From positions 30,194,001-30,258,000 of the forward strand of contig OX597818.1 of assembly GCA_951406725.2 (NCBI GenBank): a stretch of DNA of 64,000 nt, written 5' to 3'. The stretch is from Octopus vulgaris (lineage: Eukaryota). The translations under genes and the position numbers were made by a program. Shown here one piece after another: positions 1-54,833 of this stretch. Every line of letters starts with the position of its first letter. Position 1 is the stretch's first letter. The notes beneath the pieces were generated by a model. The model made no database searches. It saw only the letters and a program-made list of their open reading frames with translations, and was not told where the DNA came from.

Positions 1-410
1 CATTCATCATCATCATCATCGTCATTACTGTTTAACGTCCGTTTTCCATGCTAGCATGGGTTGGACGGTTTTGACTGAGAGCTGGCTGCACCAGGCTCCA
101 GTCTTGATCTGGCAGAGTTTCTACAGTTGGATGCCCTTCCTAACACCAACCACTCCGAGAGTGTAGTGGGTGCTTTTTACGTGCCACCTGCACGGGGGCC
201 AGTCAGGCGGTACTGGCAATGACCTCGCTTAAATCTCTTTACACGTGCCACCGATACAGGTGCCAGTGAAGCAACGTTGGTAATGATCACGCTCGAATGG
301 TGCCCTTTTACGTGCCATGGGTACAGTAGCCAGTTGGCTGCTCTGGCAACGATCATGCTCGGATGGTGTTCTTGGCACCCTACTAGCACAGGCATAAGTG
401 TCAGTAAAGC
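1..410 (-). mobile_element. Retroposon with (GAT)n 3' tail (family C, SINE/RTE-tail type)
   Basis: (CAT)n followed by gtttaacgtccgttttccatgctagcatgggttggac; the same sequence recurs at 5860-6008, 36548-36807 and 62281-62800, with internal cacgtaaaaagcacc-type repeats. Confidence 0.75.
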
Positions 411-504
411 ATTATATATGTAAATTCAGTTTATCCATTTCATATAGGATCTCAGTAGTAATGGGTTTAGAGGCAGTGTCTTCATAAGCATTTAAATAAA
501 GTTC

Positions 505-555
505 TTCATGCTGATGAAAACCTAATGTGGGATTGAAACTAGTGTGGTCAAACCC
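505..555 (+). ncRNA. Degenerate type I hammerhead ribozyme motif
   Basis: CTGATGA (511-517), aaacc/ggatt stem II, GAAAC, then GTC; stem I is not intact. Confidence 0.4.
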
Positions 556-796
556 TTTTTTTCTGTCCATGAAATACAGCATATAAAGTCGATGTGTTTA
601 CATTTACCTTATAATACAATATTGATCAAAACTCTGTAGGAAAGCATTAAAGCAAAAGACATTTAATACACCAGTAATTTACTTATTTTCATCCACTCTG
701 AAGTATCTGTATGTTGGCAAACAAATTGTGCCCTGCACAACTTGTTGAAGCATTTATATGATAAACAGTTGTAAAATGCTGTATTTTCCTGGTATC

Positions 797-1003
797 TAGC
801 TATTTGCAGAATCATTAGCATGCTGGGCAAAATGCTTAGTGGCATTTTGTCTGTCTTTACATTCTGAGTTCATATTCCACTGAGGTCAACTTTGCCTTTC
901 ATCCTTTGAGGATCAATAAATAAAGTACCAGTTGAACTTTGGGATTGATGTAATCGACTTTGCTTTTATCCCAAACTTTCTGGCCTTGTGCTAAAATTTG
1001 AAA
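797..1003 (+). mobile_element. tRNA-derived SINE (family B), diverged
   Basis: Homologous to the reverse complement of 8586-8814 (gcagaatc.ttagca..ctgggcaaaatgcttag...gactttgcctttcatcc). Confidence 0.7.
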
Positions 1004-1026
1004 TTATTATTATTATTATTATTATT

Positions 1027-1580
1027 GAGTGAGAGAGCAGTGCATGCCATCAAAGTGACACTGGGGTAAAATATACAAAGCCCAGTATACCCATTATGAC
1101 TACCCGTCTGATAAGGGTACACCAGGCACATGCATCAGAACCATATGTGCGCGACATGGTGATCTCATATCAAGATAAACAGCGCATGACCTTGCAGGTG
1201 GGGCCCAGTTAAAATTTTCTTCTGGTTGAATAACCCATCCCGCTCAAAAGGTCTCTGAATAAGGGTCGTTTAAGGATGTTGAACAAACCACCCATGTTTT
1301 CAAAGGTGAATTATCTAAACCTCTAAGAATTCCTTTCAACACATGGCTATGATGCTCACACACTACTTCTGCTCATGATCAGAGATGCACATATCGCCAG
1401 CCACTAAAGGACATGCTCAACTGGTTATGGTCAAACAACTGACAAGCAAATCTGTGGTATTGAGCAGAATATTTGCTGTAGCTCATCTTTTATATCAAGA
1501 CAAAACAATGTACATGACAACACTTCCAATCAGTTAAGATCAGAAGCCACAAGAGCCACTGCCTGGTACTGCATTAGGGC
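1027..1580. mobile_element. Interspersed repeat inserted in an (ATT)n microsatellite
   Basis: Complex ~550 bp segment bounded on both sides by (ATT)n tracts (1003-1026 and 1583-1649). Confidence 0.45.
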
Positions 1581-1595
1581 ATATTATTTTTATTG

Positions 1596-1649
<54 letters not shown>

Positions 1650-3034
1650 GGGTAGTGGATTGATAGAGCCATTAGAACATTGAACAAAATATCTTGCAGT
1701 TTTTATTCTAGCACTTTGTGTTTTGAGTTCAAATCCTGCTTTTATCACCCCATTGTTGATAAAATAGAGTACCAGTAAATTGACTAACCTTAAATTTCTG
1801 GCCTTATTGTGCCTATGTTATAAATGATTATCCTTAGTGAGTAGTTCTAGTCTCTCTATATGAGTAATCTTCAAGACTCACTGTAAACTTTGTAGTTTAT
1901 AAATTTATTTTCTTCCAGAGACTTTTTGCTGCTTTATCTGAAAATAATCAACAGCTGTCTCTGATGTGTTATTGGAACCACTTTGACTATTTTTGCCATA
2001 CTGTTTGGATATTTATCTATAATCTTTTAATACCCAAGATATATTAAGAGTAATTTGCTACTGATCTTCTCCACTTATAAGAATAAAGAAATTGAAATAG
2101 ATGAAACCATATTTACTAAAGAATTTTACATTTTGAATGAAAAATATCAATTTCCTTTCACTTCTTTGATTGAGTCAAAGCTGTACAAAAATAGTGTAAC
2201 AATATTCCATTACATTTTATGATAGTGATGAGATGATGGTTGCTGAAGTTCTGACTAAAAACATTTCTACTGACACTGCACCAGATTTTCTCTATCCAGT
2301 TCCATTACAGCACATTCTTTTCCTTTGGTAAAAAAAAAAAAAAAATTAAATTTTAAAAAAATGAAGAGGAAGAAGGTCTTGGCATATTTTAATAGTATTG
2401 CCAAGCTTCGAAATTGACAGAATTTTTGTTAAGAAAAATACTCAGAGCAGAGTATCTCTTTCTGTTTTACACATGCACACACGTGCATACATGCGCACAC
2501 ACAAACACACACATACACACACAGTTATGGGTATAGATGCAGATATTGATAGATGTGTGTGTGTGTGTGTGAATAGTAAATTTTTTTTTAATGCTAATTT
2601 TGGAAATAAAATGACATTTTAAGTACCACTCTTCTTCTGTAAGATATTCCAGATCTGCCTGTACTGTGAATTATCCTAGTTCTCCATGTATTAAAAAACT
2701 AAATCGACTGAAAGCACTTTTGTTCAAATGTTCTTATGGTTATATTGATTTCTTATCACGGCATAAAAGAGTTGCAACTGGATGATAGAATGCTGGTCTG
2801 TTGGTGAAAGGGTCAGTGGTTTTGATCCAGTTATTAATGTTATACTATGTCCCTAGCAGAGACTTAGTTCTTAATTACTCAACTCACTAACCTTAAATAG
2901 GTACCATGTTGCAGTATAGCCCACTAGTATAAGTAGAAATACAGTGTGCGATTAATAAGTGTTTCAGTAACTCAACTGTACTTATGTGTTTAGCTTGGAG
3001 AAGGTGGTATCAATTATACTCACTTGCCACCACC

Positions 3035-3068
<34 letters not shown>

Positions 3069-3243
3069 TCATCATCATTTTAGTGTCTACTTTCCCATGC
3101 TTGCATGGGTTAGCTGAAATTTATTAATGCAGATTTTTCATGGCCACTCACATTTTCATGGAAAATTGGAAACAAACACACAATTTTTGTTTGATGGTGA
3201 TGTTCGTTTACAATCATCATGCTTTGTAAGGCAAGGTGACAAA

Positions 3244-3280
<37 letters not shown>

Positions 3281-4916
3281 GCATTAGAAAGGACATCTGG
3301 TCATATACACCATGTAAAAACAGACAATAGAGCTTGGTACAACCCTACAGTTTACCAGTTCTTGTCAAACTGTCCAACCCATGCCAGCATGGACAATGGA
3401 TGTTAAATGACGATGATGATGATAATGATGAGGGACTTCTGTCACTTTCTGTTTTACCAAGTCTATTCAGAAAGCTTTGGATGGCCCAGAGTTATAGTAG
3501 AAGACACTTGTCCAAGTTACCATGCAGTTGGATTAACCTGATGCCATGTGGTTGGGAAGCAGACCTCTTTATTATGCACTTTGAAAACAGTCATCACAGC
3601 TACATGCAATGGCCTTGTAGACTATAAAAAAAGTCTTTTACATATGAAATTTTTTAAAAAATTGCAAGATAATAACCCTTTCTACTATAGGTATGAGGTC
3701 TGAAATTTTGGGAGAGGGCAATAGCTGATACATTGACCCCAGTGCTTGACTGGTACTTATTTCATTGACCGTGAAAGGATGAAAGGTAAAGTTGACCTTG
3801 ACAAAATTTGAACTCAATTTGCAAGAAAATAATAATATACATGACTGAACTTATTTTCTCCCTTGGTCTTCATAGGGTCTTCACCTTCTGCAGGTTCCTC
3901 CCACTTGGACCATTTGGCACTTCTAACTTCCAATACCAATGCAGTAATCTCTCTTACACACTACAATCAATTCATCTTATACCCAGTTTTTTTTTCCTCA
4001 GTTCTTTTGTACATTAATTTTATACATCCATTTCTACATCTAATATTGCACTTAGCACACAAGCATCAACTAAGTAATAGAAGCTACTAACAACTTCTAG
4101 GGAGTATTTAAGATATTTGAAGGAATTAATTTTATGGGTGATTTACTAACAATGACTTCTTCACTTCTGCTACATATATACAAAGTCATTCTATGTCCGT
4201 CTGCCTGTGAGTGCAGGCATGGCTCAGTGGTTAAGAAGTTTGCATTGTGCAGCACATTGGACAAGCATCTTCTGCCATAGCCACAGTCTGGCCAATACCT
4301 TGTGAGTAAAATTCAATAGACAGAAATTGTGGAACACCATATATATATATATATCATCATCATCATCATTATTTAATGCCCATCTTCCATACTGGCATGA
4401 GTTGGACAGTTTGACAAGCTAGAGGACAGCACCAAGTGCCACCATCTGTTTTGACATGGTTTTTATGGTTAGATGCCCTTCCTAAGACCAACCACTTTAC
4501 AGAGTGAACTGGGTGCTTTTTACATTGCACCAGCACTTGAAAGTTCTGCTTTGGCATGGTTTTTACAGCTGGATGCCCTTACAAATACCAACCACTTTAC
4601 AGAGTGGACTTGATGCTTTTTATATGGCATCAGCACTGGCAAGGTTACCAAGTAACTTGCAAGAGAGTACTGGTGGTATATATATGTATATATATACATG
4701 TGTGTGTGTGTGTGTGTGTGTGTTCGCGCGCATGTGTGTGTGTGTTGTGTGTGTGTTCGCGCGCGCGTGTGTGTGTGTGTGTCGCGCGCGCGTGTGTGTG
4801 TGTGTGTGTGTGTGCATGTGTGCGTGTATCATCAGTGGATCATATATCTGAAAAAGAAACCCTCTAAATGTTAGAGTAGTAATGTTTTTACATGAAGTTA
4901 AAAATATGTCTTGTCA

Positions 4917-29970: not shown

Positions 29971-32532
29971 GGGCCTATTTTGCCTGTTAGTTTCCTTTTT
30001 CTTTTTCTTTGGTTAGATTCAGTACTATTCACAGGTTAATCTTCAAATATTATATCATGTAGTATGAGATCAACTGGAGTTATGCTGATTGCAGTATGAT
30101 GAGGTTAATTGATGTTGATTGCATGCAGACCCATACAATCCCATATTAGCTCAGAAGTCTAACTATTAAATTTATGTAGAAGATTATAGTCATAGTTGTT
30201 TTGTTGGAGTGGATTAATTAAGCTGGATATTCATTTATTCATCTATTTAGTTGCTAATTTATTAAAAGTTGTTTTTCTTTTTTGTGACTTTGTCAACACC
30301 AAGTCATTATGCAGATGTCTGTAATATTGGGGGAGTTATGCCTCATGAAAGAGACACTTATTTTAACTTCATGTAAAGTAGGTATTTTGTTACAGATATT
30401 TGTGGTAAAAAAAATCCTGCCTCTTACAGTTGTATGATTATGTGAAGTATGTGCATGGGAGAGTACCTAAATGCATTTTATCACTGCATTTTATTTTTCA
30501 AGTTCAAGCATCTATTAAATAAGTATTGACTTTCAAATGAAAGTAGTATTGATCTCATCTATCTTATTCACATCAGATCAACTTAAACAGTTAGCATAGT
30601 GTTTCTGCTAAAAATTCCAGACACAAGAAAAGGTAACTGTTTGATTTCTGTTTGCAACAGATTTTCTTGACTCTCTCTTCCTGAAGTAAATGCCGTTAAA
30701 AAAAAAAACTCATCAACTGGAGCATAAAACTTGGATCTTGCTGTTCTGGAAAATTTGTATTGGTTACATATCATTTAACTAATGTCTTGTAGCCTTGGTA
30801 ATCATAGAGTTGCTTTTTGCTTTTTTATTTTGTTTTTTGTTGTTTTTTTTTTTTGTTTTTTTACTTTTCTATGTTTCTTTTTCTGCTATCAGTGATCTTT
30901 CAGATGACTGTTCTAGTTATATGCTAAAGTAATCTATTTCTATTCAACATGAAAATCAAGAATCCATTTCTTTTTATACCTTTATATGGATGAAATGATT
31001 CTTTTTGATATTTGCATATAAATTGTCTATGCACACTGTCTTACTGCTGGTTGATCTTGGTAATTCCACCAGTCAATCATGTTACTGATTTTCAAGCAGG
31101 CAAATTTATGCAAGTTAAATAATGTATGTTGGCCTTGGGCCACAGCCAAATAACTGTAGCAGATTTTGAAATCAAGACATTTGTAGTCAATAGTTCACTT
31201 CAGCAACTCTACTTCTGACATGAGTGATTTTTTTTTTAGATACCTGACAAACAAGAAGCAGCTACTCAACTTCAAAAAGTCAAGGAATCACAATGACTAA
31301 CTAAGCAAATGTCAAACCACCTTGATGAAGTGTTCTGGATTTGTGTATTCTCACTTGAAGCATCTTGTGCTTTGCACAAGACACTAAAATTCTCCTGGCC
31401 TACTTACATGGCAATAGAATTAGAAATTAATGTAGAAACAACAAACTAATAATAAAATTGAAAGAATTATAGAGGAGGGGATATCAAGGGACTCTTTCAA
31501 CACAAAAACAAATGAGTTAATTGGTGACTAACATACTTAACATAGCGGACCAAAAAAATTAATCAAAATTCCACATAGTGAGAAAGGAAATGTTTAACTT
31601 AATGCTGACAAAGGCAGGTAACGGAAACAACTCCAAAATCGAATTAAAAATTAAATGTCAAATGCAGAGGAGAATGAGTCTGATATTTGGCAAGTGCAGT
31701 GATACCTCTGGACATGCTTCTTAGATTTCTTCTTAGATTTATTTCCTATTACATGTCACCACATTCAATATTTAATTACTTTAGAATCTAGGAGTTGTTG
31801 CCTTTACTTTTCTTAACCAGAATTAGTTGTTTTCCTCCTCCTCTATGTATATAATTTTAATTTATCAAAAATTACTGTGTTCACTACATTAAGTATTTTC
31901 AAACAAAAATAAAGGCAAGAAAAAAGGCTAAAAATGTGGTTGGTTTGGGATAGACAACACATATCATTTTATTATTTTCAGTCATTGGATTGTAACTGTC
32001 TTGAAGCATCTCCTTTTAGCCTCCAGTGATCATTTTATAAACTTGAGAAGAATGAAAGTTAGGAAAGTAGAGCTTTATACTTTAATAAAAAAAAAAGAAA
32101 TCTTTTTCTCCTTTTCTAAAACTTACTAGGCCTATGTGTGTTTAAATGACTGCCTGACAAAAATTAATAGATATGTTATAACCAGAAAAATATTATGTAT
32201 AATTAATAAAAGTGTCAGTGTCCAAGGATGTGGCACCAATAACATCATCACCATCATAACATTCATTCACTTTTTCATGTTTGCATGGGTTGGACTGAGA
32301 TTACTGAGGCAGATTTTTCTTCAGCCAGATGCCCTTCTTGTCACCAACCCTTATCAGTTTCCAAGCAGGTAATATTTTCCCATGACCAGACATGTTCTTG
32401 CACAATATTAGAAATGAGTGACACTACTTGAATGACAGTGACAGTCATTTAGGAGGCAAAAAAACATATACACACTCACACATACATATATGTACACACA
32501 CACGCAAACATCTATATATATATATATATATA

Positions 32533-35500
32533 ATAAATATTAGGGAATAAATCCAAATTTACAGGGAAAAAAAATCAGATTTAGGATTAAATCCAATTTT
32601 ATAGTAAAATATTATAAAATATTATTAGAGACAAAACCACTATTTTGCAAAACAAACAAGGAAAGACTTAATCAATACATAAAATTTTAATAAATAGTCA
32701 AAAAAACCGCCACTACAATCGTTTCTTGTCTTGATCGACAATCTTCAGGTGGACTTCCAATCTAAAATATCAATATTTTAAAATATAAAAATAATAATTT
32801 TAAAATAATTAAAGTATGAATGAAAAAATATAAATATATAATCCATATATAACCTATATATAATCCATATATAATCAATATATAAACAATATATAAACTA
32901 AAATAAACCTATCAACAATTAAATATAAAATATAAAATATAAAATATAAAACAAAACAAAAAAATAATAATAATATAATAATAAACTATATATACACCCA
33001 TACACATATACCTAATTATATATAACCATATCTAACTACATACACTAAATCACACACCTATATATATATCCCTATACATACACATAAAAACGTCTAGGCA
33101 ACTATAAATAAATAAAATAGCTAAATACTTCAACACAATACTTATTCATACTCCCACACACACACACATACAACCCACATTCACGCTCTAGAAAACGGAC
33201 ATCACTCAAAATTATGAACGGAGAAATGGAATAAATGGAATTAAAAATTATATTCACTTGGTAAAACGAACACTACTTAAAAATTATGAATGAAACAATG
33301 CAATAAAACAACAGACATCGCAAATAGACACAAATTACTACGAATTCCTTAACAAACCCACCATGATAAACCAAAACTCATAAAAACATATAATGATAAA
33401 ATCTCCCTTTACTAAACTCTATAACATACCTATATAGCAATCCCCCTAACCTAAACATTCACACACAAATACACACACGTAAACCACACACCCACGACAT
33501 ATACAAATACCCACACCACTTACACATACCAATACATACATATAAACCTCAACATATACTCCAAAAACCCACTCAACCCCACACAGACAAAAAAACACAA
33601 AAATTATGAATGGATTCTTTTATAAAACTACCATGATAATCTAAAACTCACAAAACAGAAATGATAAAACCTCCCTTTACTAAACACTATAACATACTTA
33701 TATAGCAATCCCTTTAACCTATACATTCACACACAAATACACACACATAAACCACACACCCATAACAAATACAAACACCCACCCCACTCACACACACCCA
33801 CAAGTACATATAAGCCTCAACATATACACCAAACAAAATTACTTTACCAAGGAACTTAACATATGTATAAAAAGTATAACCGCTCTGGAAACGAACATCT
33901 CTAAATTAATGAATGGAGAAATGGAATAAATGGAATTAAAAATAATATTCACGTGGCAAAACGAACACCACTCAAAAATTATGAATGAAACAATGTAATA
34001 AAACAACCAACATCGAAAATAGACAAATTACCACGAATTCCCCAAAAAAACCATGATAAACCAAAACTCTTAAAAACATATAACGATAAAATCTCCCTTT
34101 GCTAAACTCTATAACAAACCTATATAACAATCCCCCTAACCTAAACATTCACACACAAATACACACACATAAACCTCAGACCCACGACTTATACACATAC
34201 CTATACTAACTTATAAACCTCAATATACACCAAAACCCACTCCCTCCCCACACAGACAAATTAACACATACATCCCAAAACCTAAATAACAAACCCATAT
34301 ACACATTCACACACAAACACACACACACGCAAAACACACACACACAACAGATACATATACTCCCTCACATATACCCATATACATACTCACTAAACTCGAT
34401 ATATACAACAATATTTACACACCCACACTCATACAGATAAATAAATTATACAACTAAAAACTCACACACAATCTCATATACATAAACACTCCTATGAAAA
34501 CAACATTAAATACATCGTAATTAACCAGAATATCAAAAATAACAATATGACATAAGGATAAATAAAATACATACTTACAAGTCAGTTTCAAATTATGAAG
34601 TGAAATTAAATTCTTAGCCGTTAAAAAAATCAAACCAAAATTACGTTACCATAGAAATAACTTATGTTAAAAAAAGAATACGCGCCATGGAAAGTAAACG
34701 TCATTTAAATTATGAATGGAGAAATAGAATAAATGGAACTAAAAACTATATCCACGTGGCAAACCAACACTACTTAAAAAAATTTATTATGAATGGATTC
34801 TTTAAAAAACTACCATGAAAAATCATTATATACATTTATGAGCTTTAGCTCACCTTAGCAACTCTAACAAACAACTTGCAGTAACCCAAACCTATTCTCG
34901 ATGCCTACCTCACTACTACACTATTCCATTCACAATTCCAAGCAACGCTAGTCCACCACCCGGTTACAATTCCCAACTCCACCCATTCATTCACAATTTC
35001 AACGACGTCCGCCTCCACAGCGCTACATATAAGCCTCAACATATACACCGGAGATTCACTTTCACATCCGTGCGGATGGGTGAGAGTATACATTGAGTGT
35101 AGTGATGGGGCTCCCATTACTATACACATTTATACCTGTGTAGTAGTCTCCATGTGTATATTCACGCACGGGTATAAATGCAGGGGGTACACGCGCACGT
35201 CATTTGCGTGTACCCCCTCACATGTACATATGCATGCTATTTGGGCTCGATATATGCAACAATGTAATCGCGCCCGCATACATGCATATGGGCGAGTTGC
35301 ACAATCAAAAAACGCACACGTGTGTGTGTGCGTTCCCTGGTTGTGCAATTCACCCATCTGGGTGTGAGTGGGTGTAAGCGTATCGCTGTGGATGTCGAGC
35401 TTGATACGTATGTATATGAGTGTGTATTGGGGGGTTGTACGTATTTATTGTGTGCATGTGCTTCACGCACGTGCGTCCATGTATGGATGAATATATTGGG

Positions 35501-36540
35501 ATTGCTATGTGGGTGTAAATTGGGTATGGAGGGGGAGTTTTGTCATTGTATGGGTGTGGGTTTCATTTGTGATGGTGGTTAGTTGGTGATTTTTGGTATG
35601 TTCTGTATATTTGGGTTAGTTATGTATTATTCTAGTGTGTATAATTGTATACATATGATTGGTGTGAGTGGGATTACGCCCATTTTTGGGGATGTATGTG
35701 TTTATTTATCCGTGTGGGGCGGGAGTGGCCGTTAGGTGTATATGTTGAGGCTCACATGCAATTCCAGGTACAGCGAATGAAGTGGGCACTTATATTTGTT
35801 ATGGGTGTGTGTACTTTATTATAACAGACAATACCCAAATAAAATCTGTCAATTCAACATACCAAATAAAAAACAAAAAACAAAGGGATCATAAACATTC
35901 ACACATACATACAAAACTCAATAAAAACACCACTAAATAACACCCATCAACATATAAATATATCCTCCAAAATACATATAACAAATGCATAATAAAAATA
36001 CATAATAAAATAAAATAAAAATAAAAAAATAAAAAAATAAAAAAATATATAAATAAAGAAAATAAAAAAATCTAATATAAATTATTAAAGTTTTAACATA
36101 CCATAAACTGTTAAATTAATATACATTAAAAATGAACTAATTAAAACAAAGAAATATCAATAAAGACTAACTATAATTAAAACCTAGACAACATAACCAA
36201 AAATATATTAACTAAACTAATTTAAACTAAACTAAAGTAACCTAAAAGGGAACTATTATTGCTATTTATCATGAAACTTATTATATAGGTAAAGTAACTT
36301 ATGTCTGCATTTTATTTTGCGCTCTTCACCAGTATTAAGTAAATTATCATACTTATAAAATAAAATTTCTTTAAACTCATTAGAGCATAAATAACAACAA
36401 TTAGCTCCTATAGTATATGATTTAGTTTTACAAATTATTTCCCAAATTAAACTATAATTAATATTTAGTGATTTAAGACTCCAAATGTACTTACTAAGTC
36501 CGGTTGAGTTGATTAAGTTTTTATTTTTAAAAGAATTCAT
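32533..36540 (-). mobile_element. 5'-truncated Penelope-like element: EN C-terminus, ~3.5 kb repeat-built 3' region, terminal hammerhead
   Basis: (TA)n on both sides; 36262-36540 encodes NSFKNKNLINSTGLSKYIWSLK...WEII...SY...CCYLCSNE...LLN...KCRHK; HHR at 32710-32752; the terminal tail is repeated at 58712-58870. Confidence 0.8.
32710..32752 (-). ncRNA. Minimal type I hammerhead ribozyme, apparently intact
   Basis: ccac CTGAAGA ttgtc gatcaa gacaa GAAA cgattg TA gtgg: stem I ccac/gtgg, stem II ttgtc/gacaa, near-palindromic short stem III, GUA cleavage triplet. Confidence 0.85.
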
Positions 36541-36547
36541 ATATATA

Positions 36548-44208: not shown

Positions 44209-44416
44209 AGTTAACAAGAATTGTATTGGCATTTATACATTTAGGCAGGTTTAAAGGGGTGGTGGTGGGGGACTTTTTGGGGGTAGGCATAGCGCAAAAA
44301 TATCATACTTGGGGGAGTGGTCAAGGAGTCAGTGGTAAATTAGATAAAAGAATAAATAAAAGAATAAAAAAAATATATAGAAGAATAGAGTTTTAGGTAA
44401 ATAAGGAGATTCTCAC

Positions 44417-44732
44417 TTATACATATACACATATGTATATATATACACACACACACACATATACACATATACATACACACATACATACACACACACACAT
44501 ATACATATACATACATATATATACATACATACATACACATACATATATATATATATATATATACATATATATACATATATATGCATATACATATACACAC
44601 ACACATGTATATATACACACACGACCACACATACATATACACACAAAAATATATACATACACACACATACACATACACACATACACACACATATCCACAT
44701 ACACACATGCACACACAAGTCCCTATATACAC

Positions 44733-44779
<47 letters not shown>

Positions 44780-45369
44780 TATACATATGTGTACCTATAC
44801 ATACCTACACATACACACATATACATACAAATACAAACCCATTCCCTAATTTTAATTTTATTATCTTCATTTATTACTTTTGTTATCTTTGACCGCTGGT
44901 CACAAGCATCTTGGCTACGACAGCAAGTCCATTTATCTTTCTACTTGAACACAAGCACTCACTCACGCACGCACACTCATTAGCATGCACACTCACTCAT
45001 TCGTACACTCATACACATACACGCATGCACGCGTTATATTCATACATACATACATCTACATACATTCACATATATACACATACGTACGCGTACCTACAGA
45101 TTCATGTCTACACGCTTAGAAGACTAGTCCATACATATACACCAATAAATATATATACACACATACATATACAAATACATACATACAAATATACATACAT
45201 ATATATATAATATATATACACGTATATATACATACATACACCCATACATACATACACCCATACATACATACATATATACACATACACACACCCACACATA
45301 TACATATACATACATATACGCGCATACATACACATACATATACATACATATACACATACACATATACTC

Positions 45370-45405
<36 letters not shown>

Positions 45406-45772
45406 ATACATGTACATACATACATATACATATACACACACACACATACATACACATATACACATACACACACATACACATATACATGCGTACCCATACG
45501 CACACACACACACGCGCGCATCCATATATACACATAAGTACACACATGCGTAAAAGTATACATATATCTATACATATGCTTACACATACACACACACACA
45601 CGCGCCTCCTTATGTTCATATACTTACATGCATACTCAAAAAATAAATAATAAAATATATGTACGTGCAGTTATTCATATACATACATGCACACTCAAAA
45701 AATAAATAATAAATATTAAGTATATATACATGCAGTTACCTATTATACAGGCGGATACATACATATAAACTT

Positions 45773-45826
<54 letters not shown>

Positions 45827-45949
45827 CTTACACATATGTACATATACATACACACATACATAACTCTACGTACCTACATATACATAAACACACGAGCGTA
45901 CACGTATATGTACATATACACATACACACACACACACATACATACATAC

Positions 45950-46016
<67 letters not shown>

Positions 46017-46073
46017 TATACATACACACACATACACATACACACACATATATATATACATACATATATATAC

Positions 46074-46124
<51 letters not shown>

Positions 46125-46324
46125 TACACATATACACACACACACACACATATATATATATACACACACACACATACATATACATACACACATATACATA
46201 TACATATATATATATATATACACATACACACACAACACATGTGTGCATACATACATACATACTCATACACACACACACACTTACACATACATATATACAC
46301 ACACCTACACACATATATATATAT

Positions 46325-46369
<45 letters not shown>

Positions 46370-46809
46370 TATACACACACATATTCACATATATATACAT
46401 ATACATATATATATATACCCACACATACACATACACACATATATATACATATATACATACATATACACACATACTCACGCACACACATATATATACATAC
46501 ATACACATACACATACATATATATATATATACATATATATACACATGCACATACGTATAACTCTACATACCTACATATACATATATATATATACACACAC
46601 ACATACATATACATATATACATATATACATATATATACACATATATATATACCCATCTACAATCTGTATATACACACACATACATGCACATACACATAAC
46701 TCTACATACCTACATATACATCGACATACTCACGTACACTTATATATATATATATACATATACACACACATATACATATATATATATATATAAATATATA
46801 TATACACAC

Positions 46810-46840
<31 letters not shown>

Positions 46841-46843
46841 TAC

Positions 46844-46908
<65 letters not shown>
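44417..46908. repeat. ~2.5 kb compound (TA)/(CA)/(TACA) microsatellite field with higher-order repeats
   Basis: Direct read; the motif ataactctac.tacctacatatacat recurs at about 45860, 46557 and 46696. Confidence 0.9.
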
Positions 46909-46910
<2 letters not shown>

Positions 46911-47352
46911 ACAATTGAGGGTAAAGTTAATTAGTTATTAATCAATTTCACCAAGTATTCAGTATGTAAAAGGACCATTATATTTGAGTAAACATTGTCT
47001 GAGAGAAATTTTCTTTAAGTAGTGGAAATGGCTAAAAAACTTATTTGGCTGCTATTTCTAGAAAGTTCAGTATGTGGCAAAGTAATTTATTTTACTAAGC
47101 CCTAATTATATAATATTTTATATATACATACACATATATACACACATACATATACACATACATATGCATACACACATATATACATATATACACACACACA
47201 TACATATATATTTTTTTTTTTTCTTTATATATTTTTTTACATACATACACACACACATAATACATGCGTATATTCCTACTATACCCATACATTTCTATAC
47301 ATATATACGATACACATATACACAAGCGTACACATACAATATGTGAAAGGTC

Positions 47353-49042
47353 TTAGGAGAAAAGGTAATCAGGGGTGCTAGGGGAACGGTGGGATTGGGG
47401 GGGTTTGGGGGGGGTGTCATCAATCTGGTTGCCGGGTAGGTCTATAGTTCTTGTAGTTTGCATAATTCTTATGCATGCAATTTGGGGAGTGTTCTGAGAT
47501 CTTGTTAAGGAAGAGGGCCTTTGGCGAACAAGATCTCTAGGCTCTCCGAAATGCAAAGGTCACAGCAGGTATGGCCTCCTGTGTACGAACGCGCCTTCTG
47601 TAGTAGTTTCCACTTGGTCTTGAAGGGGATGGAGTTCCTTTTAAGGTACCAGATGTGGGCGGCGAGGATAGTTTGGTTGGATTTATCCGGTCGCCGGAAC
47701 GAGTGTGTGTGGGCGTACCAATGAGTCTTAAAGCTGTTTGACGTCATTCCGATGTAGGATTTTCTTTTATCATCAGGGCCTGATCTTACCTCGCATGTAT
47801 ATACTAGGTCCCTCTGTAGGCAGTTGTTGTTGAGGGGGCAGGTGGTTTTATCAGGGCAGTTGCAATTGCTATCGGACGTTGGATGGGCCTCAGAAAAAGT
47901 AGATATATTAAGTTTTTTCACATTGTTGTTGGCTAGGTTCCTGGCTAGATTGGGCGTGGTAGAGTAGGAGAGTCTAATAGTGTTCTTATTTAGGATAGTG
48001 TAGTACTTATGTTGGGTGGGGAAGTGTTTCTGTAGGAGAGTGAAGAAGATTTTAGCTACAGGTGTAGCGACCTCACGGTTGAAGGGGGGTTGTACCAGCT
48101 AATGTGTCTTCGTCTATTTTTCCTGGGTTGGCGTGGGGCTATACTAGTATAGGTAATCCTATCTTTAAAGCCACTGCGGGCCAGGGCCTCGTTGTAATAG
48201 GGGGCTGCGGCCTTAAAGATGTCTTCCGTGGCGGACAGGCTAGAAATTCTAATTGAGACACTTTTTACTAGGTTATCTAATATATTTTTGGGGTGGTTGG
48301 AATTAATGTCTATATATCTAAGGGATTCATTTGGTTTGTGGTACAGGTAATAAAGTGAGGTTTTTAAGTCGAGGGTGACGTCGAGGAAGTTAGCTTTGGT
48401 TAAGTTGGATTCTAAGGTAATCTTAAGGCCTAAGTTTTTAAAGAAGGTGTAAAGATTTTTCCGGAACCCATCCGTGGTCCTGGGGTTTATTTTGTGGAGG
48501 GCGAAAAGGCCGTCATCGTGGTAAAGACCACCGGAGAGGCCTGTGAATAGGGTTTTCAGCCTATGGAGGATGAAAAGGCCCACTAGGTCACTTATTTCAG
48601 CCGAGTCGCTAGCACCCATGCTGACGTCGAAGGGGGTCACAGATTTTTTGTTGATCCAGTGGGATCCGTCATGGAAAAGAAAAGTCTTACGTGCGTGGAG
48701 GATCACATCTTGCTCGGCCTCGGTGATGGTGGAGGACCTCCTGGCGAAGTTAATCGCGTCGATCAGCAAGCTCTCCGATATGGAGGCGTAGTAATCCTCG
48801 ATATCCAGTTGTAGGAATCGGGTGTTGCTTTTGTCAGGTAAATCCCGGAACCAGGTTATTGCCTCGGAGGTCCTATTCCAGAGTGGAAGGGTGAAGCTTC
48901 ACGCATTTTTGGTAAAATCCTGTCCAGGATCTTCTTGCTGACGGATCCGATGTCAGACTTGGTTGGGTTAATCAGTCGGACCGACGGTTTATTTTCGAAA
49001 TGGTCTTTGTGGTCTTTCAGGGTGAAGTGTGGGGACTTCACC

Positions 49043-53632: not shown

Positions 53633-54833
53633 TTGGGCCATCCCATAAATAATGCAGATTTTTTATACTTTTTTTATTTTTCAAAATTAAGATAAACAAA
53701 GTTCTTTTTTAATCTGAAATATACTCTCCTTCATTTTCTATAATATTCTGCCAAATATCTGGTAGATTTTCAAGGTCCCTCTTCCAGAATTCAGTTGTCT
53801 ATGACAAAAGATACTCCTCCAGTACTGTTCTGACCTCATCTACAGAATTCACATTTTTCCCATCCAAATGATTTTGAAGACTGTGGAATAAATGATAATC
53901 ATATGTGGCAGTGTCCGGCAAATATGGTGGGTGGGGCATCGTTTCCCATTCAAACTGCTCCAGCCTTTGGAATGTCTGAATGTGGCCAAGCATTATCCTG
54001 ATGGAAGAACACCGTTCGTCTTAAAACTAAAGATGGTCATTTTTATTCTAGCACTGACTTAAGCCACTCAAGCTGCACACAGTAGATCTCCTTTGTTATC
54101 ATTTGGTTTGGGTTTAAAAGTTCAAAGTGAACTAAACCTTTCCTATCCCACCAAACAGATCACAATACCTTGTGGGTGAAGATCTTCTGTAGCCTGAGGT
54201 GCCAATGTTTCTCCTTTCCCTACTGACTATCTTCAGTACTTGACATTTTTATAGAGTACCCATTTCTCATTACCAGTTACTATTTGGTTCAAAATAGATT
54301 CATTCATGAGACGTAACAGCTGTGTGCGATTAGACTCAGAAAGTTTGTGAGGAACCCATTGACCCAATTTGCTGACTTTTCCAATGGCACGGAGGTGTTG
54401 ATGAATGGTTGAATGACCAAATCCATATCTGATAGTTCCTCAATAGTTACAATGGGACTTTGTTCCACCAGTGTTTGCAGGACATCCTCATCGAGTTCTA
54501 TGGATCTTCCAGGATGAGGCTCATTATCTAGGCTGTAGTTTCTGGCTTGAAATTTCTGGAACCACCGTTGACACTGGCTTACATTTATTGTCCAATCCCC
54601 ATATACTGCATTAATATTCCATGCACTTTCCATTGCTTTGTCACTTCCATTATAGCTTTGAAAAAATAACTATTAAAATCAAACTACACTCTTCAAAATT
54701 TGCACTAAGAATAAGACCAAAGTAAAATTACTACCTACTTTTTAGCAAGTTGATGCAGGTAGTTTATCCCATCTCCCTCCGATTTTTAGTTCATGCAACT
54801 GAAAAAACTGCATTATTTATAGGATGACACAAA
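53633..54833 (-). mobile_element. Mariner (D,D34D) transposon, full-length but with a pseudogenised transposase
   Basis: ~28-bp TIRs ttgggccatcccataaataatgcag / ctgcattatttataggatgacacaa in a TA context; QRWFQKF, VTGNEKWVLY, HQDNAWPH and HPPYLPDTATYDYHLF motifs. Confidence 0.92.

Follow-up and report, generated by a model that had tools for sequence, protein, structure and literature searches.

A hairpin in the trailer of a young, autonomous Penelope-like retroelement of Octopus vulgaris has about half of the adenosines in its paired stretches replaced by G, on the strand that was the sense strand when the changes arose, and in all likelihood these changes are ADAR edits of germ-line RNA that reverse transcription fixed in the genome over more than one round. 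The patterns are read directly from alignments of genomic copies, and what we infer from them is that the enzyme was ADAR, that it acted on RNA and that it did so in the germ line. A-to-I editing is usually deemed non-heritable, whereas edits in this active retroelement lineage appear to have reached the germ line on two occasions or more. The hairpin block was flipped in the course of this history, which provides a built-in control, in that the edited strand changes along with the transcribed strand.

Results

The element that carries the hairpin

The window, by which we mean the whole stretch of 64,000 nucleotides that was analysed (contig OX597818.1, positions 30,194,001 to 30,258,000, from an assembly of 2.8 Gb), contains a copy of the element with the following features.

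32510..36542, minus strand: copy of an autonomous Penelope-like retroelement, 5'-truncated, with (TA)n on either side
36262..36542, minus strand: C-terminal end of the endonuclease ORF, from the reading of the ORF end and the open frames of relatives
35833..36261, minus strand: proximal trailer, an unpaired internal control
34280..34470, minus strand: unpaired unit copy with which the original prediction compared the hairpin, close to the hairpin-less state
32710..32752, minus strand: minimal hammerhead-like core near the element 3' end, from a core pattern scan

The ORF ends at 36542-36262 on the minus strand, and minus is therefore the sense strand and the strand of the element RNA. The trailer of this copy is ~3.7 kb long, and the copy matches one with a full ORF at 98%, colinear across trailer bases 1-3755. 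Among relatives (150 scored of 13,256 candidates) open frames reach 862 aa. The ORF of one of them, L064 (841 aa), has RT-like and C-terminal GIY-YIG-like motifs when read by eye; its atlas neighbours at 0.95-0.98 carry GIY-YIG, RVT_1 and HTH_animal on some members, and scans of the element ORF returned no Pfam families and no PDB hits. By these motifs and neighbours, the family has the single ORF of EN+ Penelope-like elements, with an RT followed by a C-terminal GIY-YIG endonuclease, and it shares with them 5'-truncated, tandem and inverted insertions at microsatellites.

The putative hammerhead-like core recurs in 75 of the 113 trailers scanned; it had no Rfam hammerhead match, and its single-strand fold is not significant (z = 0.16). 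Four Rfam matches with E values of 0.02-0.93, far below gathering scores, were taken as chance. The plus strand is nearly free of G across ~32800-36250, with the exception of 35000-35800. Elsewhere in the window, 58717-58893 matches the element 3' end (32510-32686) at 88% in the opposite orientation and is another remnant of the family.

The hairpin and the types of copies

The fold-back that had been predicted near 35320 has its centre at 35319/35320, and of the outer pair proposed for it (35031-35049 with 35735-35752), 35032-35049 pairs without mismatch with 35735-35752, its reverse complement (18/18). All three pairs of unpaired and paired sequences quoted in the original prediction are present, at 34391/35242, 34418/35269 and 34437/35288. 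Its remark that the paired copy differs from the unpaired one mostly by A>G agrees with the left arm, which has 56 A>G, 1 G>A, 23 C>T and 12 T>C, and the mixed polarity that it saw between the arms is also real: 48 G/A and 42 T/C columns are G-U compatible on plus, and 15 and 19 go the other way. When both strands were folded, 34950-35830 scored well below 20 shuffles, with z = -10.4 for the plus and z = -7.1 for the minus strand.

The hairpin is not private to the window copy, since all 40 scored matches (of 502 candidates) have it at 95-100%, and 63 distinct hairpin blocks were found among the fetched loci. The history of the block was reconstructed from 120 larger loci of the family. Type A are hairpin-less copies, nine of which (93-98% endonuclease identity) served as the outgroup. 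Type B (L082, L221-L224, L229 and L230) is colinear with type A plus an added fold-back of ~430 bp per arm. In the window form, the type-B block is present as its reverse complement at 82-94% identity, with a deletion of ~130 nt that is common to all flipped copies and already found in one type-B copy, L230. The features of the block are as follows.

34822..35811, no strand: block inverted relative to the type-B precursors, equal to L082 trailer 1463-2593 less the ~130 nt deletion
35020..35319, plus strand: left arm of hairpin 1, the old inverted arm, in which the first-round edits read A>G on plus
35320..35752, no strand: right arm of hairpin 1, with first-round A>G on plus overlaid by second-round T>C on plus (that is, sense A>G)
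34822..35019, minus strand: arm of hairpin 2, made by the flip, with second-round edits only
34625..34797, minus strand: partner arm of hairpin 2, with 6/47 sense A>G and 5/38 T>C on plus

The type-B orientation accounts for 7 of the 63 distinct blocks, which are set apart in the tree, and the flipped form is widespread, with a nearly unchanged ORF. By parsimony, the order would be type A, type B and then the flipped form. The unpaired copy in the window matches the hairpin-less outgroup, which makes the hairpin the derived state.

A type-A copy, L090 (G000:C3, near 101.457 Mb), contains at trailer 731-1624 a perfect palindrome of 896 nt with 0 mismatches, which is a candidate for an unedited, newborn fold-back. 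Inverted pairs of young copies, L008/L025 (G000:C18, near 73.185 Mb) and L235 (G000:C1, near 148.54 Mb), are potentially very long duplexes that would suit a further round of editing.

Changes that preceded the flip

Changes of the first round were polarised by comparing type-B copies with the nine type-A copies on the element sense strand. In L082, A>G affects 74/137 sense adenosines of the inverted arm and 34/64 of the direct arm; L222 has 79 and 33 such changes in the two arms, and L224 has 77 and 33, and no other type of change exceeds 5. Sense T>C is absent from the type-B arms (0/65 and 0/138), and sense G>A numbers 0-2 per arm, so that the clustered sense G>A expected of APOBEC was not found. 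Outside the arms, five unpaired stretches of L082 have a single A>G among 620 adenosines (Fisher p = 4e-77), and the ORF end has 0/327. The changes are thus restricted to the duplex, in both of its arms (108/201 inside versus 1/620 outside), with some leakage into other unit copies. It should be noted that the control of 620 adenosines comes from L082 alone and leaves out its third unit copy. The corresponding rows of L222 and L224 were dropped because they anchored onto the direct arm, and the distal row of L222 was unused because of poor anchoring (6/158 A>G amid many other mismatches).

Compared arm against arm on the sense strand, the type-B hairpins have 162 G-U versus 3 A.C oppositions. 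In 70 of the 159 type-A adenosine columns, all seven type-B copies have G, a pattern that points to a single founder burst to which further changes were added later. As the block was flipped after this round, the old sense A>G now reads A>G on the plus strand of the window, where 35097-35319 shows A>G at 40/95 and T>C at 1/44 relative to the nine type-A copies. The A>G that the original prediction read on the plus strand holds, with one correction: as minus is the sense strand, these changes are antisense to the RNA of today and, at face value, on the wrong strand for ADAR. The ADAR option works only with a step that the prediction had no means of seeing, in which the block had the other orientation when it was edited and was inverted afterwards.

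Changes that followed the flip

The flip had two consequences for the new sense RNA. It turned G-U pairs into A.C mismatches, of which the basal flipped copy L070 has 86, and it set the formerly direct stretch 34822-35019 opposite a downstream twin, creating the second hairpin. When the window copy is compared with the type-B rows, sense A>G stands at 88/432 in the block and its partner versus 0/95 upstream, in the unpaired proximal trailer 35833..36261, and T>C at 1/257. In the right arm of hairpin 1, sense A>G rises from 0/188 in the basal flipped copy to 21/187 in the window, and 35320-35632 carries both layers on plus, with A>G at 27/64 and T>C at 18/138. In the arm of hairpin 2, it rises from 29/96 to 49/96, and on plus this arm has only T>C (37/85; A>G 0/49). 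Across the flipped copies (18 tabulated of 42 aligned) the A>G load forms a gradient that rises from basal to derived copies, of 0, 5-15 and 18-22 of ~188 in the right arm, and of 29, 32-42 and 43-50 of 96 in hairpin 2.

The controls remain close to type A: on plus, the proximal trailer has T>C at 2/87 and A>G at 1/187, and the unpaired unit copy at 34280..34470 has A>G at 0/83 and T>C at 4/33. The mixed polarity in the window thus results from old A>G on plus combined with new T>C on plus after the flip. A>G is the dominant change, it lies on the transcribed strand, and the strand follows the flip. The rounds are read from differences between extant copies and from columns on which the outgroup agrees, and the second round takes together all changes after the flip.

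Neighbour context and the ADAR reading

ADARs share a depletion of 5' G, and in invertebrates they favour a 3' A, as described in PMC5625713. In the first round, A>G rates by 5' neighbour were 52/80 for U, 26/43 for A, 15/39 for C and 4/14 for G (U/A versus C/G, p = 0.0009); in the second they were 27/96, 39/131, 15/145 and 3/31 in the same order (p = 4e-6). These counts treat sites as independent, and depletion of 5' G alone is marginal in the first round (p = 0.05, with few G sites). The rates with a 3' A (28/43 and 32/128 in the two rounds) are at or near the top. The neighbour check called for by the original prediction therefore favours U and A over C and G on the 5' side, and not CpG. 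After the flip, adenosines opposite C changed somewhat more often than those opposite U (18/108 versus 7/85, p = 0.09). Matches to the adenosine-deaminase domain (PF02137) were found at four loci of the genome.

Outgroup polarisation, restriction to the duplex, strand and neighbour context all support the prediction's first option, ADAR-edited RNA written back into DNA. The outcomes it had named as refuting, namely equal substitution spectra inside and outside the hairpin or CpG decay alone, were looked for, and neither occurred. Among 8 of 24 listed runs, guessed to be RNA and available as assembled contigs, the sequence is present in runs labelled with four organisms; such contigs cannot separate editing from paralogues and were given no weight on either side. 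One of them (run X6, organism B, guessed RNA) runs on from a loose end at window position 34965 into a partner unit with ~7 A>G in 30 letters on plus, which may stem from an edited transcript or from a genomic copy that carries edits.

Some observations count against the ADAR reading. The excess of private A>G that single young copies have in the block is slight (26 over 350 A columns, versus T>C at 14 over 287, and A>G at 8 over 160 outside), and no single copy showed a large private burst, the highest numbers being 6 and 5; the newest insertions thus came without large fresh bursts. In addition, A>G beyond the mapped arms amounts to 8/65 in the third unit copy of L082, 4/73 in q1661-2000 and 16/156 at 'unpaired' adenosines of the block, for which long-range pairing with other unit copies may account. 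In a reduced cluster screen of 84 trailers, A/G runs occurred in 27 and 18 loci versus C/T runs in 4 and 1. We discounted these as independent editing events, because (TA)n/(TG)n tracts, located at or past element ends, hold many of them. Folds rich in G-U near trailer base 660 of older subfamilies are expected from the G/T-rich composition and were given no evidential value. In L117, L144, L148 and L158, which belong to older subfamilies, trailer 550-850 consists of self-complementary (TA)n broken by TG on the sense strand, with A/G runs that differ between copies, and such tracts would fit editing of AU hairpins.

Alternative explanations

The alternative to which we give most weight, while regarding it as improbable, is a DNA- or polymerase-level cause tied to retrotransposition, either an adenine deaminase acting on folded sense-strand DNA or misincorporation by the RT in hairpins. 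A sequence by itself cannot tell RNA from sense-strand DNA, and model substrates have been reported in which ADARs edit the DNA of RNA:DNA hybrids where a dA-C mismatch is present (PMC12925331). However, editing of first-strand cDNA would read as sense T>C, which the type-B arms lack altogether, and the load of 50%, confined to one type of change with a U/A preference on the 5' side, suits ADAR. We know of no polymerase with such a spectrum. In addition, genomic palindromes alone do not show the bias: the palindrome of L090 has 0 mismatches, and those of L080, L155 and L097 have mismatches without a G-U bias, from which it follows that a DNA palindrome does not by itself gain A>G polarity.

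The G-rich arms could also have arisen by CpG decay, by GC-biased repair or conversion between the arms, or by selection for stable pairing, and this we consider very improbable. It is true that changes after the flip restore pairing, with A.C mismatches decreasing from 86 in L070 to 55 in the window and the sense-strand fold going from -125 to -202 kcal/mol. Yet the first round went in the opposite direction, making A-U pairs into weaker G-U pairs, whereas GC-biased repair would have yielded T>C alongside A>G on one strand, where T>C is near zero. Regarding CpG, C precedes just 15 of the 97 first-round sites, and such sites change less often than others. Least probable of all is the second option of the original prediction, that unpaired copies lost C on the sense strand by C->U/T change while the protected duplex kept the older state. 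The trailers of all subfamilies are indeed poor in C on the sense strand (TG exceeds CA in 89/101), and the C>T that followed the flip, which outnumbers G>A, is somewhat rarer in C-G pairs (6/96) than at mismatched or unpaired C (29/200; p = 0.05). However, the A state is common to nine hairpin-less copies and to the unpaired copy in the window, which has no A>G on plus; both arms differ from one outgroup unit at sites of opposite polarity, which loss in the outgroup cannot give; and the arm of hairpin 2 gained sense G in the recent history of the family. Loss of C is thereby refuted as the cause of the contrast, and persists only as a weaker second bias.

Discussion

A proposed history

ADAR editing of element RNA could have produced the present hairpins as follows. 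A type-A trailer would have gained an inverted duplication of ~430 bp, giving type B; the alignment displays the duplication, and parsimony gives the order. The inverted piece most likely arose in the manner in which Penelope insertions often form inverted, truncated copies (PMC8557442), and it would then have been transcribed within the element. The duplex RNA was probably hyper-edited, mostly in a single founder burst, and then retrotransposed, the RT of the element reading inosine as G so that the edits entered DNA. This step accounts for the observed pattern if an ADAR acted at the RNA stage. The flip of the block, visible in the alignments, next placed A.C mismatches on the new sense strand and formed the second hairpin, after which successive masters gained new sense A>G in both hairpins; the gradient among copies is observed, and editing is its presumed mechanism. 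Finally, the flipped form spread widely with an almost unchanged ORF. As the ORF is unpaired and was spared, the lineage stayed active.

Comparison with known systems

ADAR-type A-to-G hypermutation has been described in avian retroviruses, namely Rous-associated virus as well as avian leukosis virus (Felder 1994; Hajjar and Linial 1995; cited in PMC12925331). As in our case, about half of the adenosines of an inverted repeat became G through reverse transcription (PMC12925331). Unlike in those viruses, the changes here are found in a cellular, non-viral retroelement, are fixed in inherited DNA, were amplified across many chromosomes, and were followed by re-editing after the change of strand. 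Editing of LTR retrotransposon DNA by APOBEC (Knisbacher and Levanon, PMC4866542) is similar in that the genomic copies of retroelements carry clustered, strand-biased changes made by a deaminase of the host, and it was reported as absent in 19 invertebrate genomes. It differs in giving sense G>A, derived from C-to-U in cDNA and not tied to a duplex, whereas here sense A>G lies in paired arms.

Porath et al. (PMC5625713) reported that dsRNA derived from repeats is hyper-edited across Metazoa, with octopus and frog showing the strongest signal. Their data and ours have in common inverted repeats with dense A-to-I clusters and a depletion of 5' G; their changes, however, are in RNA compared with an unedited genome, while ours sit in the genome. 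Craig et al. (PMC8557442) described canonical EN+ Penelope-like elements that carry hammerheads and form pseudo-LTR structures, both tandem and inverted; these elements resemble the present family in the single ORF with RT and C-terminal GIY-YIG, in 5' truncation, in inverted pieces beside tandem ones and in microsatellite targets. Here, unlike in those elements, an active lineage has taken the inverted piece permanently into its trailer, in edited form. A count of the term 'RNA editing' in that article gave 0. A literature search, for which subscription journals and supplements were outside the scope, returned no report of ADAR edits fixed in Penelope-like or other non-LTR copies, and the precedent found was in retroviruses only. 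The contribution of this window is the flip, with the edited strand switching along with the transcribed strand.

Implications

If this reading is true, ADAR meets retrotransposon RNA in the germ-line or early embryonic cells of a heavily editing animal, heavily edited RNA can still retrotranspose provided that the ORF is spared, and the genomic copies are a record of past ADAR specificity. The edits also provide a barcode for which parts of complex Penelope insertions derive from one RNA, a question that bears on the transposition cycle of these elements. In practical terms, such copies would confound both the calling of RNA editing and the dating of repeats.

The sense strand carries a further bias, C>T, which has no ADAR explanation. 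After the flip, it amounts to 38/305 versus 3/124 for G>A and is weaker than A>G; in the ORF, it is 4/152 versus 0/235, and in the distal trailer, where C is scarce, it is not evident (0/47). It is not linked to CpG, it climbs along the lineage as A>G levels off, and it has erased some of the old edits, 68 G remaining of ~86. A broader view, about which we lean slightly towards doubt, is that active Penelope-like lineages have in ADAR a standing source of heritable mutation in the germ line: duplexes formed by inverted pieces would be hyper-edited and fixed and, together with sense C>T, this ratchet could have given the whole superfamily its trailers rich in G/T and poor in C, and with them the TA-to-TG microsatellite mosaics.

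Other elements in the window

A second, different Penelope-like element is located at 47505-49040 (minus strand) and 44400-47300, its RT and endonuclease frames being split by a frameshift. Its trailer is likewise poor in G on plus, with a long TA/TG mosaic on its sense strand. An open frame at 54304-54669 (minus strand) is a candidate for the N-terminal part of a mariner-type transposase.
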